IMG/VR virus record: IMGVR_UViG_2563366990_000002
Span: 1-14,868 of that record
Source of the DNA: a virus
Taxonomy: Duplodnaviria > Heunggongvirae > Uroviricota > Caudoviricetes
Direction: 5' to 3' (one strand)
Length of the DNA stretch: 14,868 nucleotides
The position numbers and the translations under genes were made by a program. Below, in pieces: positions 3,178 to 14,653 of this stretch. The notes under the pieces are model-generated. The model was not told the DNA's origin. It was given only the letters and a program-made list of their open reading frames with translations, and made no database searches. Within the stretch, counting starts at the first letter, position 1. Each line of letters starts with the position of its first letter.

Positions 3178-3647
3178 ATGATGTGCACTCCTGCGCGTCT
3201 GTGCCCCAGCATGTTACGCATGACCAGCGAGGCTTCAGCCAGTAAGGTGGCGCGTGTGTCCTCGCTTTCCTGCCCCGGATAGGTTTCACGGCGACCAATG
3301 GTGGCGAACTCGCCCATAAGATCGGCCTTGGCACGGGCATAAACGGCCTTTTTGTACTGTGCGACCAGCTGGGTTTCATCGCCCATCCTGGCCCCCGGTA
3401 CGTCTGCGGCGCGTTCATGCCCCTGCGCCTTCCAGTGCGCCACAACCGGCGCCAGCGTGGTGTTCACCTCGGCCACTGCGGCAAGCAGCGCCATGGCCGC
3501 CGTGTCGTCGGGTAAATCAGCCGGAAGCGTGCGTGACCCCTGAAGCTCAGCCAGATCAAGGTCCGGCCAGAACGGCTCGCCGTTTGTCACCGTCTGCGGT
3601 GTGGATTTCAGCGGTTTACCGCTGACGCTGAAGCTCGGTTCGCTCAT
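3174..3647 (-). CDS. L: phage head completion / stabilization protein (P2 gpL family)
   Basis: 157 aa from ATG at 3647 (MSEPSFSVSGKPL...), preceded by GAGG at about 6-nt spacing. Size is close to P2 gpL (about 169 aa) and it sits immediately after the small terminase gene as in the P2 O-N-M-L order. Confidence 0.8.
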   Translation of the reverse strand: MSEPSFSVSGKPLKSTPQTVTNGEPFWPDLDLAELQGSRTLPADLPDDTAAMALLAAVAEVNTTLAPVVAHWKAQGHERAADVPGARMGDETQLVAQYKKAVYARAKADLMGEFATIGRRETYPGQESEDTRATLLAEASLVMRNMLGHRRAGVHII

Positions 3648-3754
3648 GACGTGCCTCATATGAATAAAAAGGCGGGCTGTCCGGGATTCCACGGCCATAC
3701 AGTTTCCGTCACTGATGCCTCCTCCCGCGCCCGCCCGGCCCTGCGGGTAGTCGT

Positions 3755-5501: not shown

Positions 5502-6560
5502 TTAAACAAAGTCAAACGGTTTTTCGCTTTCTGCCGGTGTGCCGGCCGGGCGTGGCGTGATGCCGGTGGCTGACAGCTTCGTGGTCAGGTCGTTAAGTTT
5601 TTCGGCAATGGCTTTGATTTCTTCTTTGTCGGTGTCGTCCCGGCGACGGGCGGCAAAGCGGCGGTAACGTTCGCCTTTTTCCGGTGTGATGGTGCTGAAG
5701 GCTTTGATGGCGTCTTCCAGCTTCGCTTTTGCAGCGGTAAAGGCTTCGGCCTTAACCTCGTCTTCCGGGGCGGCTTTCACTTCTTCTGCCAGCTCTGCCA
5801 CCTCTGCGGCGGCGTCGGCGATTTCGGCGGCGATTTCCGCGACTTCGGCTTTTGCTTCTTCCGGCGTGTCTGCTGTGCCCTCGCCAGCGGCAGCGGCGCT
5901 GCCGCCTTCCACCAGGGTGATCAGCTTTTCAAGCAGTGCTTTAATTTCGTCCATTTTTGCGTCCTCGCCTGTATCAGGCTTACTGGTATCGGTGTTGTCG
6001 GTGTTGTCGGTCTGTCCTGCGCTGAACAGGCGTTTCAGGAATGATTCAGGTTTACTGGGGGCATGGGTGGTGTCCGGTGACAGGCTGCCCAGCGTGAACG
6101 TCTGGCAGTTCGCCCGCTGTGCTGTGTATTCCTCGTTGTTCAGGGTGAAGCGTATTTTTTCCGTCCCCAGACTGGCGGGGATATCCGTCACCGCCACGCC
6201 CAGGAGATAGTCGCGTCCGCTCCGGGCGAAGTTCTCCACTATCTCGGCGGATGTGAACAGCTTCTGCCCCAGTCTGTTGGCTTCAATCAGGTACTGGTTA
6301 GGGACCAGCCGCGCGTAGAGGCGGGTTTTACCGTCCTCGCCGGTTTCCGCTTTCAGTGAGTCCACTTCACCCAGATTACTGGTGTACTGGCGGTGTCCGA
6401 TTTCTTCCTCATGCCAGGGCCACAGCATCGCCGTGTAGGTGTTGCGGGAATAGGTTTCAGCGGCATCAGTCAGCCACTGCGGATCAATTTCGCGGCCGTC
6501 AACGGTCGGTCCTGATGTGGCGATACATATCCAGTCGGTCATCAACGTTGGCTGCGGCAT
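5502..6560 (-). CDS. O: capsid scaffolding protein, P2 gpO family, with extended Ala/Glu-rich region
   Basis: 352 aa from ATG at 6560 (MPQPTLMTDW...), preceded by GAGG. First gene of the minus-strand late operon, followed by the capsid gene. Long Ala/Glu/Lys-rich coiled-coil-like region typical of scaffold proteins. The ORF track's longer 408-aa version starts inside the regulatory region and is less likely. Confidence 0.85.
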   Translation of the reverse strand: MPQPTLMTDWICIATSGPTVDGREIDPQWLTDAAETYSRNTYTAMLWPWHEEEIGHRQYTSNLGEVDSLKAETGEDGKTRLYARLVPNQYLIEANRLGQKLFTSAEIVENFARSGRDYLLGVAVTDIPASLGTEKIRFTLNNEEYTAQRANCQTFTLGSLSPDTTHAPSKPESFLKRLFSAGQTDNTDNTDTSKPDTGEDAKMDEIKALLEKLITLVEGGSAAAAGEGTADTPEEAKAEVAEIAAEIADAAAEVAELAEEVKAAPEDEVKAEAFTAAKAKLEDAIKAFSTITPEKGERYRRFAARRRDDTDKEEIKAIAEKLNDLTTKLSATGITPRPAGTPAESEKPFDFV

Positions 6561-6726
6561 CGTGGCCTCTTTTACGTGAAAATCTGAAGAACTCCGGTGA
6601 GTGTCGGGATTTTTACAGCGGGGGGCTACTGGCTGAATTCGGCTGTCTTCGGATAACGTGGGATAGCCGAACACAGCCGAAATTTTCTGCCTGAATGCGG
6701 GCCGGATGCGCCGCCATAATGGGCGC
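6561..6726. promoter_or_regulatory. divergent late-promoter region between the gpO and gpP operons
   Basis: 166-bp non-coding gap between divergently transcribed capsid and terminase/portal operons. Contains a 13-bp imperfect inverted repeat (CGGCTGTCTTCGG at 6640-6652, CCGAACACAGCCG at 6667-6679) and a TGT-N10-ACA element at 6602-6617. In P2 the equivalent region carries Ogr-activated late promoters. Confidence 0.55.
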
Positions 6727-8529
6727 ATGGCTAAATATTCTGACGAAATTAAAGAGGCGGCCCGCTCGCTTTATCTGAAGCGGTGGCATCCCCGAGATAT
6801 TGCGGCGGAGCTCGGTATTCCGCCGCGCACGGTTTACCACTGGTGTGATGTGGGGCAGTGGGCCGCCCTGCTGCCCGCTGAATCCGTTGAGGAGGTGATC
6901 GCCCGGCGTATTGATGTGCTGACCGGGCGCGAGGGTAAGACGGAGTGCGAACTTGCCGAACTGCGCGAGCTTATCGCACAGCACGTGAAGATTATCGCCC
7001 AGAAAAACAAACACGCTGAAAGGATGGCGGAAATTGCCGCCACGCGTCCGGCAGTGTGCGACGACGGTGTGGCGGCGACCAGCGGCGGGGGGGAAGGGAA
7101 AAAGCGGCGCTACCGGAAAAACAACGTTTCCGGGCTGACTGCTGAAATGCTGGATGCATGGGCGCGTAAAAATCTTTATGCCTACCAGCTGCACTGCCGC
7201 GAGAACCGGCACCGTGAGTGGCGTTTCATCCTCAAGAGTCGCCAGATAGGCATGACCTGGTATTTTGCATGGGAGGCGTTCGAAGATGCGGTGGTGACTG
7301 GTGATAACCAGATATTCTTTTCTGCGTCACGGGTTCAGGCGGAAATCTTCCGCGAATATATTATTAATTTCGCCCTGCAGTTCGGGATCACGCTCACGGG
7401 TAAGCATATCCGTTTAAGCAATGGCGCAATGCTGCGTTTCCTGTCCACCAATGCCAGTACCGCCCAGGGATTTAACGGCCACCTTTACGGCGATGAGGTG
7501 TTCTGGATCCCAAAATTCACGCGACTGCATGAAGTGGCCTCGGCAATGGCAACCCACGACAAATACCGCACGACGTACTTTTCGACACCCAGCGCCAAAA
7601 CCCACCAGGCTTATCTGGTCTGGAACGGTGACGACTGGCGCGGGGATGATCCGGCGCGTCGTGCTGTTGAGTTTCCGAAAGAAAGCGCGATGCGTGTGGG
7701 CTGTGAATGCCCTGACGGGATCTGGCGCTACATTATCCGGCTGGAAGAGGCGGTGGCGGGTGGCCTGTCTGCACGGGTTGATATTGAACGTATCAGGAAC
7801 CGCTACAACCCGACCACCTATGCGATGCTGTACGGCTGCGAGTTTGTTGACAGCAAGGATGCGGTATTTAAGTTCTCCGAACTGGTCAGGTGTGAGGTGG
7901 AGATGGAGACGTGGGGTGACTACGATCCCACGGCGGCACGTCCGTTCGGCAATCGTGAGGTGTGGGCGGGCTTTGACCCGTCAAGGTCCGGGGATAATTC
8001 CACGTTTGTAATTGTGGCTCCGCCTGTCCATGAGGGCGAGCGGTTCCGTGTGCTCGCCGTCTGGCAGTGGCAGGGATTTAACTTCACCTGGCAGGCCGAT
8101 CAGATCCGCGAACTGATGCAGCGCTTTAACATTACCTATATCGGCATAGATATCACCGGTATCGGGAAAGGGGTGTTTGATATCGTCAGTCGCTTTGCGC
8201 CACGTGAGGCTAACGCCATTCTTTACAGCGTGGAGAGCAAAAACCGCCTGGTGATGAAAATGATAGACGTGGTGGCCCATAAGCGTATCGAGTGGGCGAA
8301 AGACGCCATTGATGAGGCCAGCCGTGAACGCACGGAGATCCCCGCGTCGTTCATGTCCATACGCCGCACCACCACAAAAAGCGGTAACGCGCTGACGTTC
8401 GTGGCGGAACGGTCGGATGTTACGGGGCATGCGGATGTGTTTTTTGCCATTTCGCACGCCGTGATTAATGAGCCTGTAGATTATGACTATGAACGCCCGT
8501 CCACATGGGCCTTCGGGAAAGCCGCATGA
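6727..8529 (+). CDS. P: terminase large (ATPase) subunit, P2 gpP family
   Basis: 600 aa from ATG at 6727 (MAKYSDEIK...); size matches P2 gpP (about 590 aa). Divergent from gpO and followed by the portal gene with a 4-nt ATGA overlap. An alternative start at 6706 would add 7 aa. Confidence 0.9.
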   Translation: MAKYSDEIKEAARSLYLKRWHPRDIAAELGIPPRTVYHWCDVGQWAALLPAESVEEVIARRIDVLTGREGKTECELAELRELIAQHVKIIAQKNKHAERMAEIAATRPAVCDDGVAATSGGGEGKKRRYRKNNVSGLTAEMLDAWARKNLYAYQLHCRENRHREWRFILKSRQIGMTWYFAWEAFEDAVVTGDNQIFFSASRVQAEIFREYIINFALQFGITLTGKHIRLSNGAMLRFLSTNASTAQGFNGHLYGDEVFWIPKFTRLHEVASAMATHDKYRTTYFSTPSAKTHQAYLVWNGDDWRGDDPARRAVEFPKESAMRVGCECPDGIWRYIIRLEEAVAGGLSARVDIERIRNRYNPTTYAMLYGCEFVDSKDAVFKFSELVRCEVEMETWGDYDPTAARPFGNREVWAGFDPSRSGDNSTFVIVAPPVHEGERFRVLAVWQWQGFNFTWQADQIRELMQRFNITYIGIDITGIGKGVFDIVSRFAPREANAILYSVESKNRLVMKMIDVVAHKRIEWAKDAIDEASRERTEIPASFMSIRRTTTKSGNALTFVAERSDVTGHADVFFAISHAVINEPVDYDYERPSTWAFGKAA

Positions 8530-9578
8530 GCAAGAAACGCAGAAACAAAACGTCACGCGTGACGAAAAAAGCATTCACGCCCGCACGTGGCAGCACAATC
8601 ACGTTTGGTCAGCCGGAACCGGTGCTGACCACCGGCACGGACTACCATAACATCTGGTATGACAACGAACACAACCACTGGCAGCTGCCGATTAACCGCC
8701 TGGCACTGGCGCAGCTCCCGAACCTTAACGCCCAGCACGGTGGGGTGCTGTATGCCCGCCGTAACATGGTGGCGGGGGGCTATACCGGTGGTGGTCTCAC
8801 AACGGACCAGATGGAACAGGCGGTATTTGACTACCTGTTGTTCGGCGATCTCGCCCTGCTCAAGGTGCGTAACGTATTCGGCGACGTCGTGGCACTTGAG
8901 CCGCTTCCGTCGCTGTATCTCCGGCGCCGCAAAACCGGTGAGTTCGTGGTGCTTCAGGAAGGTCCCGCGCTGGTCTATACGCCGGAAGATATTATCTTTC
9001 TGCGGATGTATGATCCGCGTCAGCAAATTTACGGGCTGCCGGATTATATCGGTGGCATCCACTCGGCGCTGCTGAACAGCGAGGCCAGCCTTTTTCGTCG
9101 CCGTTACTACAACAACGGGGCGCATATGGGCTTTTTGCTGTATACGAACGACCCTGGGATCACCACGGAGATGGAGGATGAGATCCGCGAGAAGGTGGCG
9201 GAGTCTAAGGGGCTGGGAAATTTCCGCAATCTGTACATCAACATCCCCAAAGGTTCGCCGGATGGGGTGAAAATTATTCCGATTGGTGAGGTGAGCGCCA
9301 AGGATGAATTTTCAAACATCAAGGGGATCAGCGCCCAGGATGTGTTTACGGCACACCGCTTTCCTGCCGGTCTTGCGGGGATTATCCCCACGAACGGGGC
9401 CACCATCCCTAACCCGGAAACGACGCGTGAAACGTACCGCAAGGATGAGGTGATACCGCTTCAGCGTAAAATCATGAACGCCGTGAACAGCGATCCCGAT
9501 ATACCGGAACACCTTTATCTTTGTTTTGATGTGGATGCCGGGCATGTGGCGGAAGAAAAAGCGGTGCCGGTCGGGTAA
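8526..9578 (+). CDS. Q: portal protein, P2 gpQ family
   Basis: 350 aa from ATG at 8526 (MSKKRRNK...), overlapping the gpP stop. Size matches P2 gpQ (about 344 aa) and P-then-Q co-transcription matches P2. Confidence 0.9.
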   Translation: MSKKRRNKTSRVTKKAFTPARGSTITFGQPEPVLTTGTDYHNIWYDNEHNHWQLPINRLALAQLPNLNAQHGGVLYARRNMVAGGYTGGGLTTDQMEQAVFDYLLFGDLALLKVRNVFGDVVALEPLPSLYLRRRKTGEFVVLQEGPALVYTPEDIIFLRMYDPRQQIYGLPDYIGGIHSALLNSEASLFRRRYYNNGAHMGFLLYTNDPGITTEMEDEIREKVAESKGLGNFRNLYINIPKGSPDGVKIIPIGEVSAKDEFSNIKGISAQDVFTAHRFPAGLAGIIPTNGATIPNPETTRETYRKDEVIPLQRKIMNAVNSDPDIPEHLYLCFDVDAGHVAEEKAVPVG

Positions 9579-9615
9579 AATGTCCTCCCCGGAATACGTG
9601 TTATCGGGAGGTAAG

Positions 9616-9879
9616 ATGCGGATTTTTAAAGCCCGGTGTCCTGACTGTGGCGCACCTGCTGTCATCCGGAAGACAGACTGGAAAACCCCTGAACTTGCGG
9701 ATCTGTACTGTGCATGCAGTGATGTCGAATGCGGGCATACCTTCGTCTGTACGATGACCTTTTCCCATACCCTCAGCCCCGGTGCCCGCTCCGGTCGCAA
9801 TATGGTGAAGTTTCTTGTTGATGCCATGCGCCCGGAAGATCGCCGGTATGCGCTTGAACTACTGTCGCGGCGTTCCTGA
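9616..9879 (+). CDS. Ogr/Delta-family C4 zinc-finger transcriptional activator homolog
   Basis: 87 aa from ATG at 9616, preceded by strong GGGAGG at 4-nt spacing. Motif CPDC-x20-C-x-C-x4-C-x2-TF aligns with P2 Ogr (CPLC ... YHQCQNVNCSATF). Has a roughly 40-aa C-terminal extension relative to the zinc-finger core. Confidence 0.8.
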   Translation: MRIFKARCPDCGAPAVIRKTDWKTPELADLYCACSDVECGHTFVCTMTFSHTLSPGARSGRNMVKFLVDAMRPEDRRYALELLSRRS

Positions 9880-9895
9880 CGCGCTTCGCTTGTCT

Positions 9896-9940
9896 GCTGC
9901 TTCGCCGGGGCAAAAAGAATTTTTACCCCGGCGAAGCAGC
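9896..9940. repeat. perfect 15-bp-stem inverted repeat (GCTGCTTCGCCGGGG ... CCCCGGCGAAGCAGC) with A5/T5 loop
   Basis: Read directly from the sequence. Located 17 bp after the Ogr-like gene stop. No U-tract follows on either strand, so it is not a classic intrinsic terminator; could be an RNA stability or termination element or a protein-binding or packaging-related site. Confidence 0.7.
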
Positions 9941-9975
9941 CCTGATAAAGGGGGGGGGTGGTGTAAATTCGGACG

Positions 9976-10037: not shown

Positions 10038-10265
10038 TTAATCCGGCTCCCCTCGTATTATTGTTTCTGTATGAATATCGGGAATCTGTTTTGTACCGGA
10101 TAGATATTTTACAGCAAGACTCATTAAGTCATTGTAATTATAATCCCTTCCAGCTACAGCTCCACTCAGGATGTAGGCGTCTTCAATATTGGCTGCGATG
10201 CAGGACAAGATATCAGCTAAAAGGGTTGTATCGTAGTTCGTATAGCGTTTGATTAGATGAGACAT
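10038..10265 (-). CDS. hypothetical 75-aa protein, AT-rich accessory (moron-like) gene
   Basis: ATG at 10265 preceded by GGAGG at 4-nt spacing; own terminator downstream and AT-rich upstream promoter-like region. Local GC is far below the rest of the window. No recognisable family. The ORF track's longer 90-aa version lacks a ribosome-binding site. Confidence 0.6.
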   Translation of the reverse strand: MSHLIKRYTNYDTTLLADILSCIAANIEDAYILSGAVAGRDYNYNDLMSLAVKYLSGTKQIPDIHTETIIRGEPD

Positions 10266-10445
10266 AAAACCTCCGGGTTGCTTATTAATATTGCTGGCGA
10301 AATCAGTCATTGTGTTAGCTATGTAATATTAACAGAAGTGTAAAGTGTTTTTATTCCGGGGTGGTAATGTTGCATATATTTTCTTAGTGTGTGTCGGGTG
10401 AATGAATTGCGTTGCGGTGAAAAAATCGGGCGCGTCAGTGCGGCC

Positions 10446-10601
10446 TTACTGCTGACGGCGTTCCCGGAGTTCGGTCAGTGCTGCAAGTAAATTCTCCCAC
10501 CACGTTTCTTCCACGACCGGGTTTTGTCGTGAAAGCAGCTGCTGTGCCGACTCAATCATTTTCGTAAGCTCTCTGTCGCTGATCCTCCTGGTGCTGTTCA
10601 T
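10446..10601 (-). CDS. hypothetical 51-aa protein
   Basis: ATG at 10601 (MNSTRRISDRELTK...) preceded by AAGGAG at 6-nt spacing; 48 bp downstream of the preceding ORF in the same orientation; weak hairpin plus T6 after the stop. Charged and helical in character. Confidence 0.5.
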   Translation of the reverse strand: MNSTRRISDRELTKMIESAQQLLSRQNPVVEETWWENLLAALTELRERRQQ

Positions 10602-10649
10602 GGTGCGCTCCTTTAGTTGGCTGTTTCTGGTTATGTTCATGGTCTTTGT

Positions 10650-14051: not shown

Positions 14052-14333
14052 TTAGTGGTGGTGTTGCTGCTGGTTGATAAGGTCCTGCAGTTCTGCCAGG
14101 TCTTCGGCCAGATAGCTGAAGACTGCCGCGTAATACCCGGCAGCGATACCATCGTTAAGTCGATGTAATGCGTTTGACTGCATGATGAAGGTGACAGATG
14201 CAGCCCGATGGAGTCTGCGGTTAATTTCAGTGCGGATGTGAAGACGCTCAGCGCGGGCGCGCTGTTGGTGACTGGAGTTCAGACGTGTGCTCTTCCGATC
14301 TGCGCGGGCGCGCTGTTGTTTGCGGTTTGCCAT
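14052..14333 (-). CDS. hypothetical small early-operon protein, reading frame contaminated by a 51-bp adapter-derived insertion
   Basis: ATG at 14333 preceded by GAGG. The encoded segment ADRKSTRLNSSHQQRAR (and SEEHTSELQSPTARPR in the overlapping 14248..14514 minus-strand track ORF) comes from the Illumina adapter plus duplicated flank; the native protein is probably about 76 aa. Confidence 0.5.
   Translation of the reverse strand: MANRKQQRARADRKSTRLNSSHQQRARAERLHIRTEINRRLHRAASVTFIMQSNALHRLNDGIAAGYYAAVFSYLAEDLAELQDLINQQQHHH
14268..14301 (+). other. Illumina TruSeq adapter sequence (GTGACTGGAGTTCAGACGTGTGCTCTTCCGATCT), assembly contamination
   Basis: Exact 34-nt match to the standard Illumina adapter as I recall it, flanked by a perfect 17-bp direct duplication GCGCGGGCGCGCTGTTG at 14251-14267 and 14302-14318. 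Confidence 0.9.
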
Positions 14334-14505
14334 GGTGTGGCCTCTTTGGTTGTGAATTTTGAAAACTCACCATCCAGAGGTGGAAAACTCGGGGTGGCGA
14401 GGCGTACAGGGTTTCCACAACCGGTAACCAAAGAACCCGGCCCGACCGAAGTCGGCCCCGTACGCCCCGCCATAATTCTGACGCGAAAAAGACGTGGCAA
14501 TACAG

Positions 14506-14531
14506 TACGCACAAAAAAACCGCTGGCGCGG
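14506..14531 (-). terminator. candidate intrinsic terminator on the minus strand
   Basis: On the minus strand, a short stem AACCGC-GCCA-GCGGTT followed by a T7 run (plus-strand A7 at 14513-14519), about 125 nt downstream of the truncated minus-strand ORF ending at 14654. Stem is short, so strength is uncertain. Confidence 0.4.
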
Positions 14532-14653
14532 TTGTGCGCTTTGGTTATCGGCGGGGTGGAAATCCCGGCACCCGTTTTATGAGGTGCGGGAAAACTGTAA
14601 CCCGACCAGGCGAACGCTGGCAAGCGGTTTTTTTGTGTGTGCATGATGATCAC

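Follow-up and report, generated by a model that had tools for sequence, protein, structure and literature searches.

What is the small zinc-finger gene that follows the portal gene in this P2-related DNA, and is its place there an anomaly? The window, by which we mean the whole stretch of 14,868 nucleotides that was analysed, carries at 9616-9879 (+) an ogr-like gene for a protein of 87 amino acids, composed of a zinc ribbon (C8/C11/C34/C39) and a clade-specific helical tail. An earlier note on this DNA had read the gene as a regulator in an unusual position, either the late activator of the element or a piece of cargo. We consider it highly probable that the open reading frame is the prophage's own Ogr-family late activator, situated at the usual place of its lineage and served by a putative circuit of a promoter plus feedback.

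Prophage context of the ogr-like gene

The window is part of a Peduoviridae-type prophage. Its minus strand encodes, in order, a head completion protein, the small terminase subunit (M), a P2-family capsid protein (N) and the capsid scaffold gpO (5502-6551, -; Pfam Phage_GPO; length as annotated in the relative L003), the last of these being the first gene of the leftward late operon. The plus strand encodes the large terminase subunit gpP (6727-8529, +; Pfam Terminase_6N, Terminase_6C and Terminase_5) and the portal protein gpQ (8526-9578, +; Pfam Phage_portal; a 1053-nt portal gene is annotated in L003), with which the structural genes of the P-Q late operon end, and then the ogr-like protein, a short cargo stretch and a convergent gpA-type replication endonuclease. 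Among isolated phages, Salmonella SI7, SW3 and SW5 (Irrigatiovirus) come closest, with 77% amino acid identity in the terminase (SI7), followed by Yersinia vB_YenM_324 and Cronobacter ESSI-2.

Copies of the region at 95% identity or more are present in about 16 complete E. coli genomes. A complete related prophage in E. coli Z1323MEC0001 lies between ytfP and ppa and carries its own capsid, tail, replication and integrase genes. The genes for integrase, repressor and Cox follow the ogr-like gene there at a distance of about 9 kb, and no other gene of that prophage is annotated as Ogr-like. In addition, a six-frame HMM and regex search of this complete relative (L003 together with L087), with the far end and the neighbourhood of the integrase included, returned no second Ogr finger. 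Because the complete E. coli relative lacks a second Ogr-type gene, we take the gene to be the element's own activator and not cargo, and the first of the two options of the earlier note, that it may be the late activator of the element, is the most likely one.

The ogr-like protein belongs to the Ogr/Delta family by profile and alignment

Translation of 9616-9879 (+) gives an uninterrupted reading frame whose 87-residue product begins MRIFKARCPDCGAPAVIRKTDWKTPELADLYCACSDVECGHTFV. As the earlier note had described, the gene starts 37 bp past the portal gene (TAA at 9576-9578, ATG at 9616) and has a ribosome-binding site, a Shine-Dalgarno sequence read as GGGAGG at 9606-9611 (+), 4 nt upstream of the ATG. 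An alternative in-frame ATG at 9580 would extend the product to 99 amino acids, but the start that is conserved throughout the clade in our alignments, MR(V/I)..K, is the one at 9616.

The protein matches the entire Pfam Ogr_Delta profile PF04606 (residues 7-53 on all 47 profile positions; 57.4 bits, cut-off 26.3 bits, E=1.3e-15) and PHROG 603 (transcriptional regulator, E=6e-30). Its cysteine ligands, determined by regex scan and alignment, are C8-X2-C11-X22-C34-X4-C39, and the resulting spacing, CX2CX22CX4C, is the motif of the Ogr/Delta family (PMC3931495). Alignment confirmed that the same spacing is common to P2 Ogr, both halves of P4 Delta and K139 orf13. The finger had previously been written as CxxC...CxC...C; the spacing does fit the family, but Cys32 in the 'CxC' is an extra cysteine that aligns with no ligand position. 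The family-model match, the cysteine spacing and the standing of the gene as the sole Ogr gene of a P2-related phage all agree, and the protein is, by profile and alignment, a member of the Ogr/Delta zinc-finger activator family, as had been proposed from the letters of the window alone. Zinc binding and activation through the alpha subunit of host RNA polymerase are further properties of this family.

Homologues with 52-99% identity occur in Escherichia, Serratia, Hafnia, Citrobacter, Enterobacter, Klebsiella, Pectobacterium and others, and the identical protein is encoded on at least 1000 public contigs; the RefSeq/NCBI name for this exact protein is 'ogr/Delta-like zinc finger family protein'. 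Because the protein is conserved at this level of identity across many Enterobacterales, the reading frame is no chance ORF. Members of the same clade are found in K139, Kappa, Smhb1, phiO18P, ESSI-2 and SI7, with 48% identity to the window protein for K139 orf13 and 60% for the SI7 homologue. P2 Ogr, with which 186 B and PSP3 Pag are grouped, resembles the window protein in Pfam family, cysteine spacing and small size, whereas identity between the two is only 32% over 38 residues. P4 Delta likewise has Ogr_Delta fingers with the same spacing, but it is a satellite protein of 166 amino acids in which two Ogr-like domains are fused, while the window protein has a single domain and belongs to a complete prophage.

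The part behind the finger is where the window protein departs most from P2 Ogr. The C-terminal extension of roughly 40 residues described in the earlier note shrinks on comparison, as the protein is only 15 amino acids longer than P2 Ogr (87 versus 72), and its tail after the finger measures 48 residues against 37, a difference of 11. That tail is nevertheless unrelated to the one of P2 Ogr and could not be aligned to it, the BLASTP alignment ending at residue 44. In the alignments, a SHTLSP motif follows the finger of the window protein and precedes a helical tail ending in ...AL.LL; the tail is kept throughout the clade with the gene after the portal, HP2 included, and the K139/SI7-type homologues share with the window protein both the motif CACSDVECGHTFV...SHTLSP and the helical tail. 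An AF2 model of modest overall confidence (mean pLDDT 68.5) has strands at 4-7, 14-19 and 30-32 and helices at 60-70 and 73-84, of which the two tail helices are the best-supported part (block pLDDT 84-87). A search of the PDB with the protein gave no meaningful relative.

The position after the portal is typical of the lineage

The earlier note regarded the place of the gene directly downstream of the portal as unusual, and this did not survive comparison with related phages. P, Q and the ogr-like gene lie on one strand and in the same order in all 80 of the related IMG/VR viral contigs fetched, and the ogr-like start lies within about 100 bp of Q in 74 of them, although these loci are kin to each other and the counts do not represent independent events. 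The replication gene is convergent in each of the 70 loci in which it was detected. The same succession is annotated in Salmonella SI7 and Cronobacter ESSI-2, and Vibrio phage K139 is annotated with the order P, Q, orf14 and orf13, the latter as a 'zinc-finger protein'; its position after the portal was already stated in a 2021 paper (PMC8537503). K139-type phages resemble the window in having the gene after P and Q together with a convergent replication gene, and differ from it in the downstream cargo. K139 itself also differs in the extra small orf14 between Q and orf13 and in a gap of 70 bp against the 37 bp of the window.

Haemophilus HP2 and Pseudomonas phi3 each have, directly after the portal, an ORF without annotation that matches Ogr_Delta with 49 bits. 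These ORFs are intact and stand where no gene is annotated, at 3477-3737 of locus L088 for HP2 (AY027935) and at 3501-3731 of locus L090 for phi3 (NC_030940). With 86 amino acids in HP2 and 77 in the phi3 match, they have the same position as the window protein and a similar length, and the HP2 product shares 30% identity with it in an alignment that reaches into the tail. By homology and position, both are predicted late-activator genes that were missed in the published genomes.

P2 and Burkholderia phiE202 keep ogr on the side of the tail gene D. There are two lineage-typical positions of ogr, and the window has the second of these, after the portal; as judged from gene order, this position is the rule in the HP1/K139/ESSI-2/Irrigatiovirus part of the Peduoviridae. 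The contrast with P2 drawn in the earlier note is weaker than it had seemed, as P2 ogr too stands at the 3' end of a late operon, namely FETUD, and shares its terminator. The operon in the window is P-Q instead of FETUD, and the gene is therefore far from att and int.

In six of the 80 loci (L021, L024, L025, L026, L046 and L077), the portal gene and the ogr-like gene are set apart by some 2.7-3.6 kb of inserted DNA. The insert in L024 (2973-5935) holds two co-directional genes for 691 and 295 amino acids without a Pfam or PADLOC match, to which the searches assigned no function, and the gene that comes next after ogr in L024 has weak LmuB/JetC-like matches. The junction between Q and ogr is a second cargo insertion point.

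A candidate ogr promoter and probable read-through from the P-Q operon

A candidate -10 element of a dedicated ogr promoter, TAAAAT at 9576-9581 (+), shares bases with the portal stop codon and begins 40 nt upstream of the ogr-like ATG. Of 61 unique upstream sequences, 54 have exact TAAAAT within -44 to -38, against a chance expectation of 0.003 per 13-nt window, and most of the remaining ones have TAAAAT at -33 or a variant with one changed base. HP2 has TATAAT at -41 from the ATG of its ogr-like gene and K139 has TATGAT at -40, while the annotated -10 of Pogr in P2 is the same TAAAAT at the same distance (23996-24001, with the ATG at 24036). The hexamer is retained in three contexts: overlapping the stop codon, as in the window; in non-coding DNA after the 3-kb insert, in the L024 group; and inside an optional in-frame N-terminal extension (codons L-K-S/F), in most Enterobacteriaceae relatives. 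Coding constraint could be part of the conservation. Because a generic two-hexamer sigma-70 scan upstream of the gene called nothing and no -35 was recognisable, the proposed promoter is built on the conserved -10 only.

A terminator scan of the 37-bp gap between Q and the ogr-like gene gave no terminator-like site, so that read-through from the P promoter is to be expected and positive feedback is plausible. We conclude that the gene is probably expressed from a dedicated promoter plus read-through from P-Q, rather than by co-transcription alone. As such, the earlier proposals of co-transcription with P-Q and of positive autoregulation remain plausible through read-through, but co-transcription as the sole route is unlikely given the conserved TAAAAT at -40. 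In a separate search for a regulatory hairpin that might hide the ribosome-binding site, 36 distinct leaders were folded from the predicted start to ATG+6; with a mean z of +0.4 against shuffles they had no excess structure, and this candidate was dropped.

The design is close to that of P2. In the P2 record, ogr comes next after D, with which the late F operon ends; the 81-bp gap between the two holds the -35 and -10 of ogr itself, and one terminator is given as serving 'for ogr transcript and F operon'. Birkeland, Lindqvist and Christie reportedly found in 1991 that P2 ogr is transcribed at first from Pogr and later co-transcribed from PF, which establishes positive feedback. P2 ogr and the window gene have in common the 3' end of a late operon, a TAAAAT -10 at 40 nt and, just behind the gene, a terminator or hairpin. 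In the window this is a 45-bp hairpin at 9896-9940 with 21-nt arms (an inverted repeat, 95% complementary), beginning 17 nt after the ogr-like stop. It has no U-tract and the terminator scan made no call there; its place makes it a likely mark of the 3' end of the P-Q-ogr transcript and of the start of the variable cargo region.

The stretch 9874-9944, made up of the ogr-like stop codon and about 50 nt after it that run into the hairpin, is about 93% identical to the DNA directly after the portal stop of P88-type (Xuanwuvirus) phages and occurs in over 1000 complete E. coli genomes, with neighbouring genes that are otherwise highly diverged. Either a 3'-end or stability element common to these phages or a joint left by recombination at the border of the cargo region could account for it.

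A conserved palindrome between P and O

The divergent P/O region, 175 bp in the window versus 173 bp in P2, contains a 44-bp palindrome (6638-6681) that is our candidate activator site. Its 18-nt arms are 89% complementary and hold four half-sites, spaced 10 bp apart on each side, with TTCGG at 6638 and 6648 and CCGAA at 6667 and 6677; the inner dyad is TTCGG-N14-CCGAA (6648-6671). This inner dyad starts at -79 from the ATG of P in the window and in K139, K139-type phages having the same TTCGGATA-type dyad at -79, and at -79 to -77 in 48 of 58 distinct related sequences. A search of 72 loci, about 0.9 Mb in all, for TTCGG-N13/14-CCGAA gave 52 matches, and every one of them falls between P and O. 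In HP2, a palindrome of 56 bp that contains the same TTCGGATAT half-site occupies the corresponding gap between scaffold and terminase genes, although with inner half-sites 10 bp further apart, and the HP2 depositors had flagged the palindrome region as probably holding late promoters. In the P/O region of phi3, no TTCGG palindrome was seen.

Ogr and Delta are associated with a TGT-N12-ACA dyad centred near -55 upstream of late promoters, and such a dyad was absent from the P/O region of the window, the three matches elsewhere in the window being at chance level. This absence bears on DNA specificity and not on membership of the protein family. In the P2 record, a single activator site is annotated in the region from which pP and pO diverge. 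By its position and its co-occurrence with the gene, and on these grounds only, the 6638-6681 palindrome is likely to be the activator's binding site, with four TTCGG half-sites in place of the TGT-N12-ACA of P2.

In the complete E. coli relative, the late genes follow one another on a single strand without a break. Further TTCGG dyads before other late genes were not found in the whole related prophage with up to three mismatches, and reading the M-L gap and the 99-bp gap of the same prophage by eye yielded nothing convincing. With only one dyad site and a late block on one strand, the late regulon may be made up of just two divergent units.

On the P side, CATAAT at 6715-6720 (+), 6 nt before the start codon, is a candidate PP -10. 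A (C/T)ATAAT hexamer is present at -13 or -12 from the P start in 48 of 58 unique upstream sequences, with TATGAT in K139, and the P start of the window (6715-6729) has no Shine-Dalgarno sequence. This suggests a leaderless or nearly leaderless terminase (P) mRNA. In P2, the annotated start of V operon transcription coincides with the first base of the V coding sequence.

Discussion

Our preferred reading is that the window holds a self-contained cassette, with a -10 of its own (TAAAAT at -40), a short leader and a Shine-Dalgarno sequence, that would be joined to the 3' end of a late operon in the way in which P2 ogr, with its own promoter after D, has the terminator of the F operon in common. 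After induction, low transcription from the ogr promoter might supply the first activator molecules, whose binding site would be the palindrome of four TTCGG half-sites between P and O. The bound activator might then switch on two divergent late promoters via RNA polymerase, as P2 Ogr does at the equivalent place. Transcription from the P promoter, meeting no terminator in the 37 bp behind Q, would continue into the ogr-like gene and yield more activator and hence positive feedback.

Three other explanations have to be weighed against this circuit. In one, the activator was moved to an unusual site in the late operon and is expressed by P-Q co-transcription only, in pure autoregulation like that of P4 delta, which lies within the late operon sid-delta-psu and is positively autoregulated as a consequence. 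The 37-bp gap, the common strand and the missing terminator-like site between Q and ogr are what such an arrangement would have, and the P4 operon offers a precedent. We nevertheless regard this as unlikely, as a gene that depends on its own product for all of its transcription cannot start the circuit, as the TAAAAT at -40, the same as the -10 of P2 Pogr, is kept even where 3 kb lie between Q and ogr, and as the site after the portal is the norm of the lineage and not a relocation (PMC8537503).

Still less probable is a cargo regulator that is dispensable to the prophage and acts on P2-like phages or P4-like satellites by cross-activation or interference. Ogr, Delta and related activators do cross-activate, the gene adjoins the variable cargo region and the DNA just downstream is common to P88-type P2-like prophages, all of which speaks for this second explanation. 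Its synteny is universal, however, with the gene at the same place in every related locus examined and in several host genera, which contradicts this alternative of the earlier note; it is also the sole Ogr-type gene of the complete prophage, and a conserved P/O palindrome unlike the TGT-N12-ACA of P2 argues for private specificity and not for cross-talk. The least credible of the three, to which we give hardly any weight, is a zinc-ribbon protein that is merely Ogr-like and has another role, for example of the restriction-alleviation or antirepressor type. Small zinc ribbons are promiscuous folds, the HP2 homologue has a weak Lar_restr_allev match (18 bits, below the cut-off of 28.6), a PDB search gave no meaningful relative and the AF2 model is of modest confidence; yet the full Ogr_Delta profile is matched well above its cut-off with the exact family spacing, the prophage has no other candidate for a late activator, and the genomic design parallels that of P2 ogr.

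Taken with the two-helix tail, the putative non-P2 binding motif suggests that the DNA specificity of the window protein differs from that of P2 Ogr. We put forward a wider reading with some reserve, as a tentative possibility that falls short of what we would call probable. In it, the activators encoded after the portal (those of K139, HP1/HP2, ESSI-2, Irrigatiovirus and this prophage) would form a clade with non-P2 DNA specificity, whose sole target would be one four-half-site TTCGGATA palindrome between P and O. From it, the whole late regulon would be driven in two divergent units, the terminase mRNA being leaderless, where P2 has four TGT-N12-ACA promoters, and the two-helix tail would provide the oligomerisation needed for four half-sites. 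This role of the tail in oligomerisation is a guess from the structure model.

Given the RefSeq naming and the K139-type placement in the literature, the arrangement itself is already known, and the value of the present comparison is mainly corrective: P2 is no gene-order template for all Peduoviridae, and an ogr gene far from int is no anomaly. The putative ogr promoter element and the TTCGG palindrome were not found described in the literature searched, to which the K139 genome paper did not belong, and their comparative definition would be a modest addition. Such a recognisable and very specific palindrome of the lineage, together with the ogr promoter element, could be used to predict late regulons as well as possible cross-talk among co-resident P2-like prophages and satellites.

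Neighbouring features of the prophage

Between the ogr-like gene and a conserved block of a 134-aa gene and gpA, the window has a variable stretch (10038-10640, -) that differs among E. coli prophages which are otherwise 98-99% identical, and in some of which a MarR-family regulator is found there. In the window, this stretch holds a 90-aa ORF without a match in Pfam, PHROGs or PADLOC and a 64-aa ORF (PHROG 14672). The cargo genes beside the ogr-like gene gave no defence-system matches.

An exact Illumina TruSeq adapter sequence (AGATCGGAAGAGCACACGTCTGAACTCCAGTC) is present inside the prophage at 14270-14301 (-), flanked by a 17-nt duplication (GCGCGGGCGCGCTGTTG). It is part of a 51-bp insertion at about 14253-14303 that is missing from the otherwise near-identical relative L003 and that adds 17 codons to the ORF at 14052-14333 (-), which is annotated as 'derepression protein' in the relative. 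This insertion is an assembly artefact, not biology.

Two RNAs scored above the Rfam gathering score, a C4 antisense RNA at 14390-14477 (-, 83 bits) and an isrK Hfq-binding RNA at 14513-14587 (-, 64 bits). Adjoining each other in the early/immunity region, they suggest antisense-RNA control, in the style of P1 and P7, of a derepression or antirepressor gene in this prophage.
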